A DNA stretch of 64,000 nt, from positions 1 to 64,000 of the IMG/VR virus record IMGVR_UViG_3300031456_000001; one strand, written 5' to 3'. Below the pieces are notes generated by a model, which did not search any database, was not told where the DNA came from, and saw nothing but the letters and a program-made list of their open reading frames with translations. The DNA is from a virus. The translations under genes and the position numbers were made by a program. Below are positions 9,016 through 55,134 of this stretch, piece after piece (position 1 is the stretch's first letter; each line of letters begins with the position of its first letter).

Positions 9016-9207
9016 CTACTCGGCGCGATGCCGGCCGGGGGCCTGGCTGCCGGTGCGCAGGTCGTTGACCGCGGCCCGGTGCCCGCCCATGAGCGCGGCG
9101 TGCTTGGCGCCGTCCGGTTTGGAGCTGTCGCGCACGTTGCCGTTGCCACCCTGCGCCGAACCCCGACCATTGCCGCCGCTGCCGCCGTCGCTCTTCGATC
9201 CGAACAC
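9016..9207 (-). CDS. small Gly-rich hypothetical protein inside the RNA cluster
   Basis: AGGAGG RBS before GTG; coding-like codon usage. Confidence 0.5.
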   Translation of the reverse strand: MFGSKSDGGSGGNGRGSAQGGNGNVRDSSKPDGAKHAALMGGHRAAVNDLRTGSQAPGRHRAE

Positions 9208-9272
9208 GTCGATCCTCCTGTTGTGGTGGGCGGTGCCCGGCCAGCACCGCCTTGCGCGGCCGGGCCTGTGCG

Positions 9273-9347
9273 TAGCGGGAGCCAGATTCGAACTGGCGCA
9301 TGCATGGCTTATGAGGCCACCGACCTACCAGGCTGGTCTATCCCGCT
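9273..9347 (-). tRNA. tRNA-Met(CAT) (or Ile2)
   Basis: cloverleaf, acceptor AGCGGGA/TCCCGCT, anticodon loop CT-CAT-AA, T arm GCCAG-TTCGAAT-CTGGC. Confidence 0.8.
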
Positions 9348-9927: not shown

Positions 9928-10440
9928 CTACGCGCCTGTCACGTCGCGTGTCAAGTCCGAGTTTCCGACGGTGCGGAACCCCAGGTCAACGACCTCGTAC
10001 AGCACCTTGCGCACCCGCTCCGACCCCGTCTTCCCCGGGCTGAGGCGCCACAGCTTCGCCACCGGCTCCCGGGCCTCCAGGCTGACCACGAGGTGCAACA
10101 GCGCCTCGTCGGCCGCGTAGGTGATGTCGAGATCACTCGGCGCCGCGTTCGAACGCACGTGCGAGTGGCACATGATCCACGGGCACCGGCCCTGTTCTTC
10201 GAGCGCCAGCCACGTGGCCAGCAGCTCGACGTCGTCGGCCTCGTAGCGCAGGGCGGGGAAGTCGCTGACGTTGCGCAGCGGCGCCCAGTGGTCGCAGGCC
10301 CGGCCGGTGCCGCCGCAGTCCGGGCAGTGCCGCTGGCCGCACGTGGTCAGCGGCCCGGCGAGCACGCCGACGCCTTCTTTCGGCGCCGACGCCACCATGT
10401 GTTCGATCATCTGTTCGAACGCCTGCCGGTCGATGATCAT
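9928..10440 (-). CDS. JAB/MPN (Mov34, M67) metalloprotease
   Basis: PKEGVGVLAG catalytic Glu motif and JAMM motif HSHxxxxxxPSxxD (HSHVRSNAAPSDLD); contains a Cys-rich insert CGQRHCPDC. Confidence 0.88.
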   Translation of the reverse strand: MIIDRQAFEQMIEHMVASAPKEGVGVLAGPLTTCGQRHCPDCGGTGRACDHWAPLRNVSDFPALRYEADDVELLATWLALEEQGRCPWIMCHSHVRSNAAPSDLDITYAADEALLHLVVSLEAREPVAKLWRLSPGKTGSERVRKVLYEVVDLGFRTVGNSDLTRDVTGA

Positions 10441-11806: not shown

Positions 11807-12159
11807 GCGATCGGCCCGTTGATGTTGAAGCCGGGCATCGCCTGCTCGCGGAGCTTCGGCCGCTCGGCCGTGTCGGCCGGACCCACGTAGCTGAACGCGC
11901 TGACGTGCACCCACAGGAACCAGGTGCCCTCTTCGGAGCGGGTGGCGGACTGCTGGGCGACGTGGGCGTTGACCGCGTTCGCACACACCCGCTCGGGGAT
12001 GAACGGGTCCGGGATCTGCTCGGCCGGGAAGTTGAAGCCCATCTTGACGGTCAACTGGTCGCCGGTGTCCAGCAACACCACCAACAGATATTCACGTCCA
12101 GGAATGTACATCTCGCCGGGTGGTCGGCGGCCGTTGCCGAGGATCGGGATGTCGGGCAT
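11803..12159 (-). CDS. hypothetical protein
   Basis: AAGGAG RBS immediately after repeat tract A. Confidence 0.65.
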   Translation of the reverse strand: MPDIPILGNGRRPPGEMYIPGREYLLVVLLDTGDQLTVKMGFNFPAEQIPDPFIPERVCANAVNAHVAQQSATRSEEGTWFLWVHVSAFSYVGPADTAERPKLREQAMPGFNINGPIA

Positions 12160-12175
12160 ACGGTGCTGCTCCTTC

Positions 12176-12480
12176 GTGGTGGATGGGCCGAGCGTGGCTT
12201 GTCGAAGCGTGCCGGGCCGCGCGGGGTGGAACCGGGGGCGGGGTGGGGCGAACGGGGGATGGGTCGTCGCGGGGGACGGGGGATGGGTCGTCGCGGGGGT
12301 ACGTCGGGGAATGTCGGCGGGTGGGGTCCATGACGGGTCCAGGGGGGTCGTAACGGGGCGTCATGATCGGACAGGTTCGGGTGGAGGCGCACGGATCGTC
12401 GTTGCATCGAGGCTTGTCGACATGACGGGTAACGGCCTGGGAGCGTGGAGCAGCGTCGTGCGGGTCGACGGGTGGGCGTT
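12176..12480 (-). repeat. CGAC-(pentamer)n periodic tract A
   Basis: about 10 CGAC motifs separated by C-ending 5-mers on the - strand; exact duplication CGCGACGACCCATCCCCCGT. Confidence 0.8.
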
Positions 12481-12484
12481 GCGG

Positions 12485-12514
12485 AGTCTGGCAGAAACAC
12501 GCTGATGTGTGCAA
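12485..12514 (-). promoter_or_regulatory. sigma70-type promoter driving tract A
   Basis: TTGCAC-N18-CAGACT, predicted start at about 12480. Confidence 0.5.
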
Positions 12515-12621
12515 CCCCAGGTAGGCCGTTCTGTTGCGGTTCGCGGGTTTTGTGATACGACTTTCCGCCAGGAGGGGCAGTGGGGTTTGACGATGGCCCG
12601 CGCCGTGGTGCACAGTCGCTG

Positions 12622-12675
12622 CGACTAACCGCACCTGATCTCACCTAGCCGGCACCCCGGCACATCCCCCATCAC
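12622..12675 (+). repeat. CGAC-(pentamer)n tract in the RAMP gene leader
   Basis: CGAC TAACC GCACC TGATC TCACC TAGCC GGCAC CCCGG CACAT CCCCC ATCAC, then GGAGAG RBS. Confidence 0.8.
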
Positions 12676-12690
12676 GGAGAGTAGGCACAC

Positions 12691-13569
12691 ATGGCAGCAC
12701 CAGCCCAGACCGCGGTCAAGCCGGTCAGTCCGGCGCCGGTCGCCGCGCCGGCACCGGCGCCGACGCGTTCCGTCTTCGACGGCGCCCGCAACAAGATCTT
12801 CTGCCATCGGTTCGACGTCGAGCTGACCGTTGAGCAGCTCGTCGGCGGTACCCCCACGGACCGCAACGTCGCCGCCGGGTGGATCCGCACGAAGATGGGC
12901 CTCACCTCCGAGGACGCCATCTCGGCGCAGGTCGAGGAGGTCATGAAGGCCCGCGGAGTGACCGCCGACCAGGCGGTGGAGCAGGTGGCCCGCAACCGGA
13001 ACCTGTCCGGGTTCAAGCGGGACTTCACGACGCCGATCGCCCGGAACACGCAGCGCCTGGCGTCGACCCGCGGGGTGAAGGTGCTGCAGGCCGACGGCGA
13101 AACCTACGCGCACCGGGTGTTCGCGCCGGAGGAGGCGGAGGTCACGTTCGGCGAGCTGTACATCGAGGGTCGCCAGATCAAGGCGATGTTGAAGGAGAAC
13201 GCCATGATCGCGGTGGCGTCCGGCGGTATCGAGGGCAAGGGCTGGGGGGCGACGCGGAAGGGGATGCTCAACTTCCTGGTGGAGCACCTGTTCGTCGAGG
13301 AGAACGTGATCCTGCTCGGGGTCACTGACCCGGATTTCGTCAACCAGTCGTTCGTCCACACGTTCCGCGGTTCGGGGATCAAGCTGGAGGAGGTGGCCCG
13401 GGATGTGGTGTTGTCGTTCACGCTGGTCGCGGACTTCGACTTCACGGAGAAGGACAAGGACTTCTTCGAGCAGGTGATGGTGCGGGCCGAGTACAACGGT
13501 CTGGGCGCGAGCCGTTCGCAGGGGTTCGGGAAGTTCAAGACGACGCGGTTCGAGCAGCTGCCGGCGTAG
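12691..13569 (+). CDS. stand-alone Cas7/Csm3-like RAMP superfamily protein
   Basis: first strand RFDVELTVEQLVGG, LYIEGRQIKAMLKE resembling the RAMP IPGSSxKGxxR helix motif, C-terminal G-rich loop GLGASRSQGFGKF; good RBS and codon usage. Confidence 0.8.
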   Translation: MAAPAQTAVKPVSPAPVAAPAPAPTRSVFDGARNKIFCHRFDVELTVEQLVGGTPTDRNVAAGWIRTKMGLTSEDAISAQVEEVMKARGVTADQAVEQVARNRNLSGFKRDFTTPIARNTQRLASTRGVKVLQADGETYAHRVFAPEEAEVTFGELYIEGRQIKAMLKENAMIAVASGGIEGKGWGATRKGMLNFLVEHLFVEENVILLGVTDPDFVNQSFVHTFRGSGIKLEEVARDVVLSFTLVADFDFTEKDKDFFEQVMVRAEYNGLGASRSQGFGKFKTTRFEQLPA

Positions 13570-13598
13570 GCTGGCGGCGAACAGGCTCCCTGCGACCG

Positions 13599-13638
13599 AC
13601 AGCACCGCCCCCGAGCTTCGGCCCGGGGGCGGTGCTGT
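13599..13638. terminator. strong hairpin, likely bidirectional terminator
   Basis: ACAGCACCGCCCCCG...CGGGGGCGGTGCTGT between convergent genes. Confidence 0.75.
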
Positions 13639-13647
13639 TGTCTGCAA

Positions 13648-23344: not shown

Positions 23345-24270
23345 ATCCGCTCCTTCTTCGTCAGGAACAGCTCGTCGAGCAGGGCGCGAAATCCTGCCGG
23401 ATCGCGACGCAGCCACACCTTCCGCATCGTCATGCCGTGAGCGGTGAATGCTTTGTCGACATCGTCTTCAGCCCGCTCCCCCCAGGCGTTGGCCTCTTCC
23501 ACCAGGTAGGCCCACTGCGAGTCGTCCCGCTCGATCGCCGCCAGCAGAAGATCGTGATGGGGGTACAGCCCGTCCGCCGCCTGCTGTACCAGTCCATACC
23601 ACTGACCGCGCTCCTCGCGGTTGAGGCGCTTCAACCCTTTCGCGTTGCATCCCATCGTGGAGATCCCCCGGAACCAGGGGGTGCGCTCCCGGATCTCCGC
23701 CACAAAGGTGGGTCGCATGGCCCACGTGTTGATGGCGTTCGGGTCGTTGACCACGACGACGGCCGTACGTGCGGTGACATCTTCGACGGAGGCTCCGGCG
23801 CCGTCCGCATTGAAACTCCTCACCTGCGAGTAGCCGCGCCACCAGTGGTCACCGTTCCAGCCGTAGGCCACCGACTCGCCCCGGCGACCCTCCAGGCGCG
23901 GCAGATGGTCGTGGAGATTCCCGTCGAGGCGGTCGAACGTGGCCGGCTGGATCTCATGCAGGCGAACCCTGATCCGCTTGTGTGCCGCCGTGGCATGGTA
24001 GGCCAGCAGGCCGGGTGAACAGTTCGACCACCATGGACCCTCGGCCAGGTACGGCACGCCGTCCCCCGCGGTCAGGTCAAGCCACAGATGCTCGTCGAAC
24101 CCGCGGATATGCCTGCCCGCCCCCACCTCCCGACCGATCAGCCGGCCCATGAGCGCGTGCTTGGCCGGGGTCCGCACGCTGTGCCCGACATTCCGGCTTC
24201 CCCGCAGGGGTCGACGTTTCGACGTCACCCCTTCCCCCTCCCCGAAGGGCAGCTCGTCCTGCGGGGTCAT
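23341..24270 (-). CDS. three-Cys-motif partner protein (TcmP-like, methyltransferase fold)
   Basis: TPAKHAL, WLDLTAGDG SAM-binding-like motif, VNDP; translationally coupled to the DUF5131 gene. Confidence 0.65.
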   Translation of the reverse strand: MTPQDELPFGEGEGVTSKRRPLRGSRNVGHSVRTPAKHALMGRLIGREVGAGRHIRGFDEHLWLDLTAGDGVPYLAEGPWWSNCSPGLLAYHATAAHKRIRVRLHEIQPATFDRLDGNLHDHLPRLEGRRGESVAYGWNGDHWWRGYSQVRSFNADGAGASVEDVTARTAVVVVNDPNAINTWAMRPTFVAEIRERTPWFRGISTMGCNAKGLKRLNREERGQWYGLVQQAADGLYPHHDLLLAAIERDDSQWAYLVEEANAWGERAEDDVDKAFTAHGMTMRKVWLRRDPAGFRALLDELFLTKKERM

Positions 24271-24425
24271 GTCGTCGTCACCCGCTCGGCGTGCTCCTTC
24301 TCCCTGACGATCATCTGCTCGACGAACTCCGTCACCGACATCCGGCGCCGCAACGCCTCGATCTTCAACCACTCCAACGTGCTCAGCCGCAGCCGTAGCG
24401 ACGTGGGCCTGCGTTCCTCATCCAT
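24267..24425 (-). CDS. ribbon-helix-helix regulator
   Basis: MDEERRPTSLRLRLSTLEWLKIEALRRRMSVTEFVEQMI (not in the ORF track). Confidence 0.65.
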   Translation of the reverse strand: MDEERRPTSLRLRLSTLEWLKIEALRRRMSVTEFVEQMIVREKEHAERVTTT

Positions 24426-24775
24426 GTCGCGAAACTATCACGTCGCGAGGGTGGTTCGAACGCCCCCCGAACGTATGGCCCCCACCCGGCCCGCACACGT
24501 TCACCACTTCTAAAGAGTGGTGAAACGTGTGTGCGGGTGTGTGCCGGCGTGTGTGAGGTGCCGTGTGCGTATCTGACCTGGGGAAATGAAGATCGCGTGT
24601 GAGGGCGTGTGACCCCTCGTATGCGGATCATGGGGTCACACGCGTGTGCGGAGTGTAGGCAGACTACGCATGAGGCTGAGTTTTACCTGGTCAGCATGCA
24701 TGCTTGATCAACTAGCCGTTTCCACATGATGGGAAACGGTCATTTCGCTGTGATGCGTTATCCACAAGTGATCCA

Positions 24776-27528: not shown

Positions 27529-27575
27529 GGAGAACCCCCGCCGTTCCCTTACGAGGGGCGCGACGGGGGTTCTCC
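27529..27575. terminator. hairpin closing tract B
   Basis: GGAGAACCCCCG...CGGGGGTTCTCC. Confidence 0.55.
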
Positions 27576-28325
27576 GTGTCCGGGGCCGATGTGCCGCGGG
27601 TGGTGTCGGCAAGTCGATGTGCCGCGGGCGGCTGCTGACAGGGCATGTCGGGCCGGCGGGGACGGGGTAGCAACCAGGCAGGTCGGTTGAGACTGCAGCG
27701 GTCCGTCGGGTAAGGCCGGGGTGCCCGGGGGGAGGCTAGTCAGAGGGCGAGGAGCAGGCCGAGTACGGCGACGGCGGCGAGGATGACGACGACGGCGAAG
27801 TCGGCGTAGCCGGGCAGCGTCGCGGCGGCGGGTGTCGCAGCGGGCAGGGGCGGGAAGGGCGGGCATGTCGCGGGGGAAGGGGGTGGCGGGTCGGCGTTCA
27901 CCGCGGGTCGGGTCGACGTGTCGGCGGAACCGTGGTGGATAGGTGAGTCGGTCGGCATGTCGGCTCCTGGTTGGGACGTCCGGACGGGGGTGGTCGGTCG
28001 GGCCGGGGTGATGGGGTCGGATCGATGGCACGGTACGTCGGCGGGGTCGCGGGTCGGGGGTGTTCTTGCGGGGCCCGTCGTCGCGAGGTGGGCTCGGCAA
28101 GGCGTGTCGGATCGCAGAGAGTGGGTGCGGGTCGTCGGTGTGGGCTTGTGCGGGAAGGCGTGTCGGTGCGGGCCCGGGATGGCATGTCGACCGGTGTGTA
28201 TCGGCAAGGAATGTGACCGGAAAAGGCCGTCGGGGCATGTCGGGTGGATGTGTGGCGCCGGAAAGGTCGGGGGGCGGGGCGGGCCGGGAAGTCGAGCCGG
28301 GTACGGGGTGGGAAGGCTGGTCGGC
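27576..28325 (-). repeat. CGAC-(pentamer)n periodic tract B (largest)
   Basis: more than 20 CGAC-led units, e.g. CGAC CAGCC TTCCC ACCCC GTACC CGGCT; CGAC ATGCC ATCCC GGGCC CGCAC; CGAC ACGCC TTGCC GAGCC. Confidence 0.85.
27740..27958 (-). CDS. small membrane protein embedded in tract B
   Basis: AGGAG RBS, C-terminal helix FAVVVILAAVAVLGLLLAL. Confidence 0.5.
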   Translation of the reverse strand: MPTDSPIHHGSADTSTRPAVNADPPPPSPATCPPFPPLPAATPAAATLPGYADFAVVVILAAVAVLGLLLAL

Positions 28326-28329
28326 ACGT

Positions 28330-28674
28330 TCAGGCCGGCGGTGCGGGTTTCCAGTCGGGGTGGTGGTGGGTGCTGTAGCAGCCGACGGCGTGCAGCCAGG
28401 ACCGGCACCGCGCGCACCACACCATCGGCGCCGCCACGGTGGCGATCTCCTGCACCGGCCGGGTGCCGTCGCGCCGCGGGTCGGGGGCGAACTGGGCCGG
28501 GTCGGGTATCCGCTGGTCGGGCATGCGGTGGTCGCGGCCGCCGCAGCCGGCACAGTCGGCGTCGGTGGCCGTCGAGGCGTCCGGGGTGGTGTCGCGTTCT
28601 GCGGTGAACGCGAGCCGCCCGACGAGCCGGGCCAGGTCGAGCCGCGGGAACGGCATGGGCAACGGGGACCGCAT
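28330..28674 (-). CDS. hypothetical protein with Cys pairs
   Basis: CAGC, CARC, HAVGC. Confidence 0.5.
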   Translation of the reverse strand: MRSPLPMPFPRLDLARLVGRLAFTAERDTTPDASTATDADCAGCGGRDHRMPDQRIPDPAQFAPDPRRDGTRPVQEIATVAAPMVWCARCRSWLHAVGCYSTHHHPDWKPAPPA

Positions 28675-28675
28675 T

Positions 28676-28912
28676 TCAGTCCTCTCTGGTGAACTGCTTG
28701 AACTCCAGCTCGTCGACCTGGTCGATGTCGAGGCTGAACCGGACCGGGTACTTGTTGAGGTGTGTGGTGTAGCCGGAGCACTGGATGCAGAGGTCGGTGC
28801 CCGGCTCGTATTCGCCGTCGGCGAGCAGCGCGCGGGCCTCCTCCTCCGTGTCGGCGTGGATCTCGACGGATATCGATCCGGTGATCGGTAGGTCCAACTT
28901 CCAGACGGTCAT
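28676..28912 (-). CDS. hypothetical protein
   Basis: AAGGAG RBS downstream of the promoter motif at 28956-28973. Confidence 0.65.
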   Translation of the reverse strand: MTVWKLDLPITGSISVEIHADTEEEARALLADGEYEPGTDLCIQCSGYTTHLNKYPVRFSLDIDQVDELEFKQFTRED

Positions 28913-28974
28913 CGCTTCCGCTCCTTCGCGTGGTGGAAACCCCACAGTAGCAAAGTGTCATGCGGTGTGTCAAT

Positions 28975-29499: not shown

Positions 29500-29636
29500 C
29501 CGGGGCGGTGGTGGCTGCTGGGGCACGGGATCGGTTCGGCGATGCATAGTCGGCAGGGCTGTAGGCAGGGGTAGGCGTGTCGGCAGGGCGGGCGTGTGTG
29601 GGTGGGTGTGTCGGGACGGGACGGGTGCTAGTCGGT
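29500..29636 (-). repeat. CGAC-(pentamer)n periodic tract C
   Basis: CGAC ACACC CACCC ACACA CGCCC GCCCT GC; CGAC ACGCC TACCC CTGCC... Confidence 0.75.
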
Positions 29637-39598: not shown

Positions 39599-40373
39599 CG
39601 TCCCCTGGCATCTCGGCCCACTGTCCATGCTGGACTTCGAAACGACCGGGATCGATACCCGTGAGGCCCGGATCGTCACCGGCCATTTCGGCACGGTGCT
39701 CGGTCGCGACGGCGGGCGCCGCCCCGCCTCCAGGCCCGTCGACCTGCTCGTCAACCCGGGCGTGCCCATCCCCGTGGGGGCAACCGAGGTGCACGGCATC
39801 ACCAACGAGATGGCGCAGGTGAAAGGCGTGGATCCGCGTGATGCGGTCAACACCTACGCCAAGGAGATTTCCCGGTCCCTCATCGCCCGCATTCCAGTGA
39901 CCGGCTTCAATATAGCATATGATCTGTCCCTCTTATACTGGGAGTGCCTGCGCTGGGACGTGCCGACGGTGGCGGAGCGGATGGGCCTGCCTCCCTCGTC
40001 GGCGTTCGGGCCGATCATCGACGCCTACGTGCTCGACATGCACGTCGACCAGTGGCGGAAGGGCTCCCGGAAGCTCGACGACACCTTCTTGAAAGGTCCG
40101 GGGGTGGCCACCCACTACGGGGTGCCGCTCACCGCGGCGCACACCGCCGATGCCGACGCCATGGCTTCGGTGCGGGTGGCGGTGCGCATCGCCGAGAAGT
40201 ACCCGGACGAGATCCCCACCGACGCTGTTGTCCTGCACCGGCTGCAGAAACTGTGGCGGGCCGACCAGGCGTCCAGCCTACAGCGGTACTTCCGCACCAA
40301 GGGCCGCAAGCCAGACGCTTACGTCGATCCATGCTGGCCCCTGTGCACCGACCTCACACATCCGTCCGGTTGA
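39591..40373 (+). CDS. DnaQ-like DEDDh 3'-5' exonuclease
   Basis: LDFETTG, VHGIT, FNIAYD, AHTADADA. Confidence 0.92.
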   Translation: MPSVPWHLGPLSMLDFETTGIDTREARIVTGHFGTVLGRDGGRRPASRPVDLLVNPGVPIPVGATEVHGITNEMAQVKGVDPRDAVNTYAKEISRSLIARIPVTGFNIAYDLSLLYWECLRWDVPTVAERMGLPPSSAFGPIIDAYVLDMHVDQWRKGSRKLDDTFLKGPGVATHYGVPLTAAHTADADAMASVRVAVRIAEKYPDEIPTDAVVLHRLQKLWRADQASSLQRYFRTKGRKPDAYVDPCWPLCTDLTHPSG

Positions 40374-40575
40374 CGACCATCCATCCCCTCCCACATCGGA
40401 CCGGACCACACCGACGACCCATCCCGAGACCGGACCTCCCCCGCAGCCGACCGTTACGACGATCCTGGATAGCCCGATCCCAGCCCATCCGACAAACCCC
40501 GTCGACCCGCCTGCGGCACGGTGCACATCGACTTACCAATCCTTCCGCCGCCCGCATCGACTTACCACGGACAGG
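40372..40575 (+). repeat. CGAC-(pentamer)n periodic tract D
   Basis: CGAC CATCC ATCCC CTCCC ACATC GGACC GGACC ACAC; CATCGACTTACCA present twice. Confidence 0.8.
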
Positions 40576-40968: not shown

Positions 40969-41130
40969 CCGACGGACCGGACCGTAACGGCAGCGCCCCC
41001 TACCCGACGACCCCGCACGCAACCGTCCCACCTGGACCAGAACGACGCACCATAACGCGCCATTCCCGGCCTCAAACGACGAACCAAGCCTGAACCTGCA
41101 TCACCTGCACCACCTGCACCACCTGCACGG
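40969..41130 (+). repeat. CGAC-(pentamer)n periodic tract E
   Basis: CGAC GGACC GGACC GTAAC...; CGAC GCACC ATAAC GCGCC ATTCC CGGCC; starts just after promoter TTGACA-N17-TGTGAT. Confidence 0.8.
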
Positions 41131-42091: not shown

Positions 42092-43270
42092 ATGACGACC
42101 GAGCTGACCACGGGGGCGCTCGTCGGGCAGGTGCGCGCCTCCGAATCCCCGGCCCGGCCGCTCAAGATCTTCATGTGGGCGGCGAGCATGGTCGACGGGA
42201 CCTGGATATACCGCCTCGACATGCCGGCTCGGGAGCTGCGCCGGCTCGGCCACGAGGTGCAGATCTCCAGCACGATGAGCGCCTGGGCCCGCGACGAGGC
42301 CGACATCATCGTCGGGCAGCGGGTCTTCCAGGACCTGCCGTCGCGGATGTGGCAGCTGCTCTGCGAGGAGCGGCGGGCGTCCGGCCGTGGCGGCATGGTG
42401 TTCGAACTGGACGACGACCTGATCAACATCGACCCGAAGACCAACCCGCTCGCCCTGCGGTTCCGGCACCCACGGGTCCAGGAAAACCTGAAGATCAACC
42501 TGCGTGCCGCCAACGGGGTCACCGTCTCCACGGAGCCGCTGGCCGCGGTGGTCAGGAAGGTGCGCCGCGGCGATCCGGCGGAGGTGCACGTCGTGCCCAA
42601 CGCGGTGCGCGCCGAGACGTTCGCCGTCACGAAGACCGCGGACCGCACCTACCTGACCATGTACGGCTGGCAGGGTTCCAGCACGCACGGTGCGGACTGG
42701 CGGGTGGCCCGTGACGCGGTGGCGTTGGTGCTCGCCGAGGATGCGATCCGGCTGCGGTTCCTCGGCACCGCCCACCTGGAGGGCCTGCCCCTGACCGCTG
42801 TGCAGCGGGGCCGGAGCCGGGTCGACGCCAAGCCGTGGACCACCGACATCGACGAGCACTACCGGCGGGTAGCCGAGTTCGACGTCAGCCTGGCCCCGCT
42901 GGCCAACACGCCGTTCAACCGGAGCAAGAGCGCCCTGCGAGCGCAGGAGAGCCTTGCTCTCGGTGTGCCGGTCGTCGCCTCCGACGTGCCCTCCTACCGC
43001 GGCTGGGTCACCGACGGCGTCACCGGCTTCATCGTGCCCGCCTCGACCGGTAAGTGGGTGCGGGCGATGCGGGCGCTGCAGGACCCGGCGTTGCGCGCCG
43101 AGATGGGCGCTGCGGGCCGGGAGGCCGCGAAAGCCTGGTCGATCGAAGTTCTCGTCCATCGCTGGCTCGACGTCTACTACTCGCTGCTGCCCGACTTGTC
43201 AGCCCGGCTCAACACGCAACAGACCGACGCGCCTGACCATCCTGTATCCGGGCCGACGGCCCATGCCTGA
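42092..43270 (+). CDS. GT-B (family 4-like) glycosyltransferase
   Basis: YR...P, ELDDD, STEPL, VVPN, LAPLANTPFNRSKS, GVPVVASD. Confidence 0.88.
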   Translation: MTTELTTGALVGQVRASESPARPLKIFMWAASMVDGTWIYRLDMPARELRRLGHEVQISSTMSAWARDEADIIVGQRVFQDLPSRMWQLLCEERRASGRGGMVFELDDDLINIDPKTNPLALRFRHPRVQENLKINLRAANGVTVSTEPLAAVVRKVRRGDPAEVHVVPNAVRAETFAVTKTADRTYLTMYGWQGSSTHGADWRVARDAVALVLAEDAIRLRFLGTAHLEGLPLTAVQRGRSRVDAKPWTTDIDEHYRRVAEFDVSLAPLANTPFNRSKSALRAQESLALGVPVVASDVPSYRGWVTDGVTGFIVPASTGKWVRAMRALQDPALRAEMGAAGREAAKAWSIEVLVHRWLDVYYSLLPDLSARLNTQQTDAPDHPVSGPTAHA

Positions 43271-43455
43271 ACGAATATCGCCACAGCTGTCCCGACCGCC
43301 CCCCGTACGACGGCCCACCGCTGGCCGCCGCCACGCCCTCCCCGACCTCTGGCCGACCTTCCTGCACGCGACCATCCCACTCGGCTTGCCGACTGACCCG
43401 CCCGTGGCTGAGCTGTCCGACAGGCCAGTCCCCCACCATCCACCCCCCACCCCGA
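43191..43455 (+). repeat. CGAC-(pentamer)n periodic tract F
   Basis: CGAC TTGTC AGCCC GGCTC AACAC GCAAC; CGAC GGCCC ATGCC TGAAC; about 10 CGAC motifs, ending at GAGGAG RBS. Confidence 0.78.
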
Positions 43456-55043: not shown

Positions 55044-55134
55044 GTCGTGGGCTGGTGCCGGGAAGGCGAGTCGATCCGGGTGGGCTGGACGGGAAAGTCG
55101 GCTCGGTCAGCAACGCGGTTGGGCCGGATAGTCA
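55044..55134 (-). repeat. CGAC-(pentamer)n periodic tract H
   Basis: TGAC TATCC GGCCC...; CGAC TTTCC CGTCC AGCCC ACCCG; CGAC TCGCC TTCCC GGCAC CAGCC. Confidence 0.75.

Follow-up and report, generated by a model that had tools for sequence, protein, structure and literature searches.

Among RNA-guided systems, VIPR has only recently been described; its recognition code is gapped, and an origin of the CRISPR RAMPs from it has been proposed. As published, it consists of vrRNAs built from GGY/NN repeats, a RAMP protein named Vipr and a code in which 1 nucleotide (nt) is skipped (bioRxiv 10.64898/2026.04.26.720920, 10.64898/2026.04.26.720927). In the available text of these preprints, Vipr grips G1 and G2 of the repeat and tolerates variation at position 3, and the type II systems of the Escherichia phage SUSP1 and of a Pseudomonas fulva prophage comprise Vipr, vap1 and the vrRNAs. 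Seven types with 670 Vipr proteins are counted there (bioRxiv 10.64898/2026.04.26.720920). Here we analysed a window of 64,000 nt, the first 64 kb of the complete viral record IMGVR_UViG_3300031456_000001 (85,079 bp, with direct terminal repeats), in which a gene for a RAMP-like protein of 292 amino acid residues shares the genome with eight G/C-skewed tracts. An initial annotation made from the letters alone had paired this gene with the tracts and had named GGYNN as the RNA motif of VIPR; the published systems, with their GGY/NN vrRNAs and Vipr RAMP, agree with this. We consider it highly likely that the gene and the tracts form a system of the VIPR family, a kind which is itself already known from the 2026 preprints.

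Like type II VIPR, the locus is phage-borne and appears to encode one small RAMP-like protein with a C-terminal glycine-rich loop, and neither Cas1 nor a CRISPR array was found. As in type II, 5-nt repeats with a fixed trinucleotide and a free dinucleotide occupy long intergenic stretches beside the gene, and guides of the relatives match coding sequence with the skip on the wobble base, other vipr genes included. Measured against the available descriptions of type II, the locus also differs in several respects. The family proteins have 220-320 residues instead of about 190 and are barely alignable with those of type II. The repeat is GGS/NN here and GGY/NN there. Units of 5-10 repeats follow each other directly, with GTC as the sole separator, and lack the 3' tail of about 30 nt and the pseudoknot. 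The arrays of relatives reach 2 kb and those of this phage are dispersed over at least six intergenic gaps, and the G-rich strand is mostly antisense to the gene in this family. Moreover, self-targeting is not reported for types II, III and V in the available text (bioRxiv 10.64898/2026.04.26.720920), whereas three relatives have perfect matches in their own locus.

Other published forms come close in single features. Alternative repeat consensus sequences (NNNGG, YNNNG and NNNNG) and 'staggered' arrays, whose vrRNAs each begin where the preceding one ends, are described in the same preprint (bioRxiv 10.64898/2026.04.26.720920). The staggered arrays may be the architecture seen here, as far as the text description goes. 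GTC punctuation, gene-antisense arrays and a C-rich transcript are not mentioned in the available text of this main preprint, nor are Actinomyc-, Streptomyces or Mycobacter-, and no actinophage branch was found described in the accessible part of the VIPR literature. Solo or orphan vrRNAs in SUSP1-family phages and satellites are of the canonical GGY/NN form and belong to phages of Enterobacteriaceae, as far as the available text goes (bioRxiv 10.64898/2026.10.15.759431). They are similar to the present tracts in that guide arrays lie away from the vipr gene and guides are aimed at the vipr genes of relatives, whereas the dispersed tracts of this phage share a genome with the gene. A genomic language model has pointed to arrays of GAC/NN, CAC/NN, WGT/NN and TGH/NN beside Vipr-like folds (bioRxiv 10.64898/2026.10.21.760802). 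On a C-rich reading, the units here would likewise be led by GAC, whereas the GGS/NN, SCC/NN and GTC-punctuated forms are not named in the available part of that preprint.

The backbone RAMPs of Class 1 CRISPR systems are arranged as repeated protomers along the guide at a fixed nucleotide step. The family protein is similar to this group (Cas7, Csm3, Cmr4 and Cmr6, with the G-loop of Csm4/Cas5) in its G-loop, and its nearest named structural cluster is that of Cmr6. Unlike Class 1 systems, the locus has no cas1, no repeat-spacer array and no second RAMP-like gene, and it would work with a 5-nt step and gapped pairing. The claim that no CRISPR-Cas system is present held for Cas1, for other RAMP-like genes and for the array; cas2, cas3, cas5, cas6 and cas10 were not searched as separate families. 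In the entire 85-kb genome no Cas1, no second RAMP-like gene and no tandem array of CRISPR-like period was detected, and the sole RAMP-like match was the 292-residue protein itself (15.9 bits, cut-off 22.1). The searches of the genome for Cas1, RAMP-like genes and tandem arrays hence returned neither a cas operon nor a repeat-spacer array of the Class 1 kind. What is found is a minimal locus in a complete virus, as is characteristic of VIPR.

The spread of the gene family was determined in sequence collections. Homologues of the 292-residue protein gave 584 matches, and the family extends over 53 viral loci and 195 metagenome relatives, together with 13 genome loci. Most of the genome loci are actinobacterial, and genomes of Streptomyces and Nocardiopsis are among the carriers. 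The metagenome relatives came from an alignment-based scan; a scan with the single protein alone found none. The loci of relatives carrying the gene family are numbered with an L (L001, L003 and so on). Beside the gene, relatives carry arrays of the form GTC + (GGSNN)n that are up to 2 kb long. When a strict array was defined as three or more clean units within 1.5 kb, such arrays were present upstream of the gene in 37 of 98 loci, and looser measures gave many more. The reverse search started from the arrays. One array unit was searched for as an exact match in 2.9 million viral contigs, which returned 38 stretches in 33 records. The family gene is encoded in 24 of the 33, including all six with a completeness of 90% or more. 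Of the nine records without it, five are fragments with an estimated completeness under 20%. The profile of the SUSP1-type Vipr matched only 1 of the 33 records, and the positive control record was found. The co-occurrence of homologues with the tracts therefore holds in both search directions.

The initial annotation had placed CGAC-punctuated tracts at eight sites of the window, which are named here A (12176-12514), B (27576-28325), C (29500-29636), D (40372-40575), E (40969-41130), F (43191-43455), G (55044-55134) and H (55463-55530). All eight contain 0.46-0.53 G and 0.18-0.23 C on one strand, which is the plus strand in A, B, C, G and H and the minus strand in D, E and F. They all fall in gaps of a crude gene map of the window that is based on the guanine-cytosine content of third codon positions (GC3), i.e. 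they are non-coding. The G-rich strand of the eight tracts has 79 GTCG and only 8 CGAC, which bears out the punctuation at these sites; in 1000 shuffles, GTCG occurred 17.8 times on average and at most 32 times. When the tracts were anchored on GTCG, the proposed 5-nt periodicity was evident, with a statistic of 0.252 compared to 0.02 +/- 0.026 in shuffles (0/1000 reached it) and G peaks at -5, -10, -15 and +8.

In the relatives, with 1426 GTCG anchors in 91 arrays, G peaks were observed at -5, -10 ... -30 and at +3, +8 ... +33 with a height of 0.57-0.77. Of 1488 spacings from one GTCG to the next, 531 are 3 mod 5, and the modes lie at 33, 38, 43 and 28 nt. The array unit in relatives is GTC followed by 5-10 pentamers GGSNN, and CGAC/GTCG accordingly marks a unit boundary, as had been supposed. 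Composition was read from 355 clean units, for which G at pentamer positions 1 and 2 was a criterion of choice. Position 3 is G, C, A and T at 0.39, 0.32, 0.15 and 0.14, respectively, and positions 4 and 5 are near-uniform, though the genomes have 55-72% guanine-cytosine (GC). Tandem 5-nt repeats of a fixed trinucleotide and a variable NN beside the gene, a feature of VIPR, are strong in the relatives and degenerate in the window. This phage's arrays are short and degenerate: the units have only 4-7 pentamers and are often slipped by 1-3 nt.

The arrays are hypervariable against conserved surroundings. In seven of eight related pairs (L034/L036, L034/L052, L036/L052, L010/L038, L030/L066, L022/L024 and L047/L067), the flanks and the gene align at 65-92% and the array interval does not align; the exception is L058/L062, where the array interval aligns at 77%. 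In one comparison, L027 2566-3978 with L033 2870-4285, the vipr-like gene lies in a 1.4-kb segment that is inverted with respect to the flanks on either side. This segment is bounded by arrays of opposite orientation, as if the gene were flipped by recombination between inverted arrays. Inversion between opposed arrays may also explain the inverted gene in the window.

The code was searched with the NN of pentamer positions 4 and 5 against 1.5 Mb of sequence. With a skip of 1, the 181 whole units of seven or more pentamers gave 19 perfect matches. No perfect match was obtained for whole units with a skip of 0, 2 or 3, nor for whole units with shuffled pentamer order. Rules with three variable bases (NNN-type) were also tried and were rejected with 0 matches. 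The 19 matches stem from two guides, each of which spells codons that are conserved among vipr homologues and places the skip at the wobble position. The unit of L015 spells the first two codon bases of K-V-A-E-G-W-L-K, the most conserved motif of the family, and matched 15 loci perfectly (L026 and L072 are from one contig), its own gene not being among them. The unit of L043, on the antisense strand, spells Q-G-F-G-R-Y of the G-loop and matches about 20 loci, its own gene included. In a second scan, 665 windows of 7 pentamers were compared with 100 shuffles. The total of 27 matches exceeded the shuffle maximum of 16, the 3 matches in the guide's own locus exceeded the maximum of 2, and as many as 18 loci were matched per guide compared to a maximum of 5. 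One L027 guide is matched by the large gene upstream in its own locus, for which we guess a portal function, and by the homologue in L033; only skipped bases differ between the two targets. In L078, a guide matches a neighbouring gene resembling a helix-turn-helix regulator. The wobble phase of the L027 and L078 matches was read by eye. The code matches in the relatives thus appear to be real but few events, which agree with the published rule and with the wobble bias. The idea that the variable dinucleotides carry information was supported by these few guides of relatives under the skip-1 rule, and it was not by the units of the window, for which no target above chance was found. The own-locus and vipr matches suggest that the guides may serve phage gene regulation as well as competition among related phages.

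The L015 site is altered in the window protein, which reads VAAGW where 90% or more of the aligned family members read VAEGW (residues 60-67; 12870-12893). By our own count, the window gene has about 4 mismatches to the L015 guide. The change could be an escape or due to chance.

The relation of the protein to RAMPs and to Vipr was analysed with profiles and a structural model. Both motifs quoted in the initial annotation, LYIEGRQIKAMLKE and GLGASRSQGFGKF, were found in the 292-residue translation. The C-terminal glycine-rich loop resembles those of RAMPs, Cas6 and Csm4 in matches at the level of the G-loop, and three of 44 family members matched Pfam RAMPs (best E = 0.0022). For the ESM Atlas model (predicted template modelling score, pTM, of 0.57), the sole named structural neighbour was a Cmr6 RAMP cluster with template modelling (TM) scores of 0.49/0.50. 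The published SUSP1 VIPR locus was located, and the GGTNN arrays and Vipr were confirmed there. The profile of the family of its 195-residue protein finds the PDB chain 36pp_D ('SUSP1 Vipr protein') at E = 8.7e-84. In hhalign, our family and the SUSP1 Vipr family were colinear over 113 columns from helix 1 to the G-loop with E = 0.0029. Among cultured phages, tblastn found the family in one record only, Mae-JY09, named a Microcystis phage (L001, PP395641.1 34725-38976). Its family member has 28% identity, the stretch has 72% GC, and the family gene is followed by a C-rich CGAC-punctuated tract and then a hairpin at the right end of the genome.

From the gene-array association, the unit grammar, the hypervariability and the skip-1 guide matches in relatives, we conclude that the system most probably belongs to VIPR. 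By analogy, a diverged stand-alone Vipr-like RAMP would coat the tract RNAs, each 5-nt repeat being covered by one protomer that grips the fixed trinucleotide and exposes the two variable bases. Through gapped pairing with double-stranded DNA, in which two bases pair and one is skipped, the variable bases would silence the target. We infer the filament formation, the binding of double-stranded DNA and the silencing from the published type II system. The locus and its more than 100 relatives represent a large branch in soil actinophages with compact, tail-less and dispersed arrays and with a strand layout unlike the published picture.

A number of results weigh against this assignment. The window protein reached Pfam RAMPs only at E = 0.037 (14.9 bits, cut-off 22.1), and the curated family models were reached only below their cut-offs. 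The hhalign match to the SUSP1 Vipr family is weak, with a probability of 10.7%, and the family profile gave no match to the solved SUSP1 Vipr at E <= 10. No type II 3' tail or pseudoknot was seen, as the units abut with only GTC between, and the only conserved block after tract A resembles a promoter on the opposite strand. Likewise, no accessory (vap) gene, which is typical of VIPR though not universal, was identified: the 5 neighbouring open reading frames (ORFs) are without a Pfam match except for a Prok-JAB protein 2 kb off. A plain Fourier test for period 5 (windows of 100 nt) gave maxima of 9.0-9.6 and a mean shuffle maximum of about 9.6, so that the periodicity failed in this form; it does so because each GTC shifts the phase by 3 nt. 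In a scan of the window for canonical GGYNN repeats the best stretch was 6/10, the slip-tolerant chain score was barely above the null, and the closest relatives (L003, L004/5, L111 and L113, 53-65% protein identity) have the same weak tract form. The code evidence rests on about four independent events, and the number of guides with any match (7) is close to the shuffle mean of 5.9 and below the maximum of 13, with 37 of 100 shuffles reaching 7. In addition, the agreement in wobble phase counts for less than 1 in 3 per event because random matches favour codon positions 1-2. Finally, the window's own units gave 16 perfect matches compared to 18.6 in shuffles and no target, and neither strict windows nor slip-tolerant chains nor whole units of this phage showed an excess over shuffles.

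We then asked which strand of the tracts is the RNA. The target search cannot separate the strands, because both readings predict the same sites. On balance, we lean towards the C-rich strand being transcribed in this branch along with the flanking operons. In 8 of 8 tracts of the window, the G-rich strand is opposite to the flanking genes, the RAMP-like gene itself aside, and the C-rich strand is the sense strand of the neighbours; the tracts switch strand together with the genes at about 35 kb. The initial annotation was therefore correct in its observation that the C-rich strand is co-oriented with the local transcription. By DNA orientation, the G strand runs counter to the gene in every one of the 37 strict upstream arrays, and a GG-bearing strand co-oriented with vipr thus occurs in 0 of 37. 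In L013, L015, L016, L059 and L008, the array begins at the stop codon of the preceding gene and ends 12-50 nt short of the vipr start. There is room only for a ribosome-binding site (RBS), and therefore the mRNA of the gene must begin in or before the array. As a rough measure, the last unit is separated from the gene start by a median of 122 nt in the C-sense loci (83 nt or less in 24/53) and by 138-475 nt in the G-sense loci (n = 5). L027 and L033 are an exception, with a left array that is G-sense to the large upstream gene.

The strongest alternative keeps the same VIPR-type system and makes the G-rich strand the functional RNA (GUC + (GGSNN)n), antisense to the flanking genes in most loci; we regard this as possible, if short of an even chance. 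The order of a strong G, a second G, a weaker third base and NN mirrors the published G1 G2 Y3 N4 N5, and a protein homologous to a GG binder would be expected to bind GG as well. The G strand is also the strand of the gene in the window and in L003-5, L027, L031 and L033, and a weak terminator-like site on the plus strand, a hairpin with a T-rich tail at 12534-12556 (1 site, 0.8 expected in shuffles), follows tract A. Against a G-rich RNA stand the 37 strict upstream arrays with the G strand opposite to the gene, the arrays that leave only RBS room ahead of the vipr start, and the C-rich sense strand of all eight window tracts. A promoter-like pair conserved in four loci directs into tract A on the C-rich strand: TTGCAC (12514-12509) and CAGACT (12490-12485) on the minus strand (12485-12514), separated by an 18-nt variable spacer. 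Both hexamers are kept with a variable spacer in the window, L003 and L004 by alignment and in L111 by eye. We infer that the pair acts as a promoter, although a sigma-70 scan did not call it. The order in Mae-JY09 is gene, C-rich array, hairpin, and tract B also has the order array, hairpin when the C-rich strand is read. At its low-coordinate end, a strong hairpin on the minus strand (27529-27575; the 121-nt stretch has -50.7 kcal/mol, z = -3.8) would lie 3' of the array if the C-rich strand is transcribed. Lastly, in L051 the canonical G-sense vrRNAs and the family's C-sense array are found on a single strand with no gap between them.

If the C-rich strand is also the guide, the units would read GAC-NN-(SCC-NN)n. 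It is conceivable, though rather doubtful, that such C-rich guides are cut from ordinary operon transcripts, on the strand opposite to that of published VIPR, and that some of them are aimed at own genes and at the vipr genes of relatives, so that the system would be a genome-wide regulator and an immunity device of the phage itself, and not solely directed against other elements. The tracts would then sit in many intergenic gaps and flip with the genes because the guides are cut from operon transcripts. In this case, the family would have changed its fixed-triplet specificity, which bears on the programmability of the scaffold.

A decaying system in this phage, with a gene that is maybe intact and with short slipped tracts as remnants that no longer guide, is improbable. 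The units of 4-7 pentamers with their many phase slips, the missing targets for the window units and the VAAGW site are what decay would leave behind, and only 9 strict 6-pentamer guides are present in 85 kb. Yet the gene is intact and has strong coding statistics (GC1/2/3 = 0.65/0.43/0.94 in the ORF 12691-13569), and the GTCG enrichment and the anchored periodicity are still highly significant. L003, L004/5 and L111, at 59-65% protein identity, have retained the degenerate layout together with the promoter block, which points to selection, and about 2 kb of non-coding tracts are costly for a phage to keep. A perfect tandem duplication in tract A also looks recent. This duplication comprises a 24-nt unit at 12252-12299 and suggests that arrays grow by unit duplication.

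It is very improbable that the tracts are not guide RNAs at all and are instead G/C-skewed elements, such as transcription punctuation, quadruplex-forming or protein-binding spacers, with a RAMP likeness due to chance. The sequence evidence for a RAMP under the cut-offs, the location of the tracts at gene junctions and the lack of a decoded target in the window would fit such elements. They would not account for a 5-nt grammar with free NN, for a link to the gene family that holds in both search directions over more than 100 loci, for the hypervariability of the arrays against conserved flanks or for matches specific to the 1-nt-skip rule that include vipr homologues. The least credible alternative, an accessory RAMP that works with a canonical Vipr and is not an effector itself, draws on L051, where a canonical 191-residue Vipr (probability 97.8% against the SUSP1 family) lies directly upstream of a 220-residue family member, but the SUSP1-type profile finds nothing in the genome of this phage and matches 1 of 33 array-bearing records compared to 24 of 33 with the family gene, and the family member of L051 has its own adjacent NNNCC array, distinct from the canonical ones.

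In L051 (1175-3700), the canonical Vipr comes with three canonical GGC/GAC-NN vrRNAs and is followed by the family member with its own array; these are two VIPR-type systems side by side. The canonical array of L051 had been considered as a bridge to our family. It was rejected, as the array belongs to the second, canonical Vipr gene.

The vipr-like gene of the window starts with ATG and extends over 12691-13569 on the plus strand. It encodes a long form of a phage family, and its C-terminal glycine-rich loop reads GLGASRSQGFG. The gene sits amid leftward genes and has a leader of 530 nt. In the proximal leader (12587-12690, plus strand), a promoter TTGACG-N18-CACAGT (12587-12616) and the RBS GGAGAG (12676-12681) were read by eye; the sigma-70 scan did not call this promoter, and the sigma-70 and terminator scans overall gave almost nothing. 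An alignment with the window showed that CATCACGGAG is kept ahead of the start codon in L003 and L004. The strong terminator that had been noticed after the gene was borne out by a hairpin at approximately 13597-13640 with -46.3 kcal/mol and z = -5.8, and 0/200 shuffles were equally stable. The statement that this is the only plus-strand gene in about 35 kb is roughly right. Nearly all long genes in 0.2-35.4 kb are on the minus strand; 24088-24513 (plus) may be real, and the remaining plus-strand calls in this region are short and resemble antisense shadows.

Tract A has 12 GTCG with degenerate GGNNN pentamers, and the same layout is present in L003, L004/L005, L111 and L113. Tract B is the largest array, with 34 GTCG and a chain score of 23.4 compared to a null maximum of 21.6, and about 1 kb there is free of coding signal. 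Inside it, at about 27720-27810 on the minus strand, a short coding-type GC3 signal was seen that reads, by eye, as a small hydrophobic peptide. The units of tract C are 21-31 nt long, and tract D has the cleanest units of the window, with all 7 pentamers of 40374-40415 starting with G. The long ORFs on the C-rich strand (window 27549-28973 and 12051-12644, both minus; L013 1084-2835, plus, 583 residues) were considered as genes and rejected, as their period is 5 and not 3 and all three frames are open. The frames are free of stop codons because of the pentamer pattern, and they translate to proline-rich low-complexity 'proteins'. In annotation, gene callers will hence mistake long proline-rich ORFs of the tracts for genes.

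The phage has a GC content of about 70%, and blastn of 8 kb of the window against cultured phages gave no match. The record is present in a root metagenome run, no RNA run being listed among the public runs that contain it, and contigs from three public DNA runs showed that related strains are present. One related strain in a soil metagenome run, on a contig of 2636 nt, has a 96% identical protein, with 90 differences and 41 gap letters in the gene, and 29 other letters replace the start of tract A (window 12160-12225). An Rfam scan of the window found only three tRNA genes above the threshold, at 8048-9347 on the minus strand, and no hammerhead or other family near the tracts. The Prok-JAB protein near the vipr-like gene has 170 residues (9928-10440, minus strand), and its JAB/MPN deubiquitinase-like domain was matched with E = 1.5e-12.

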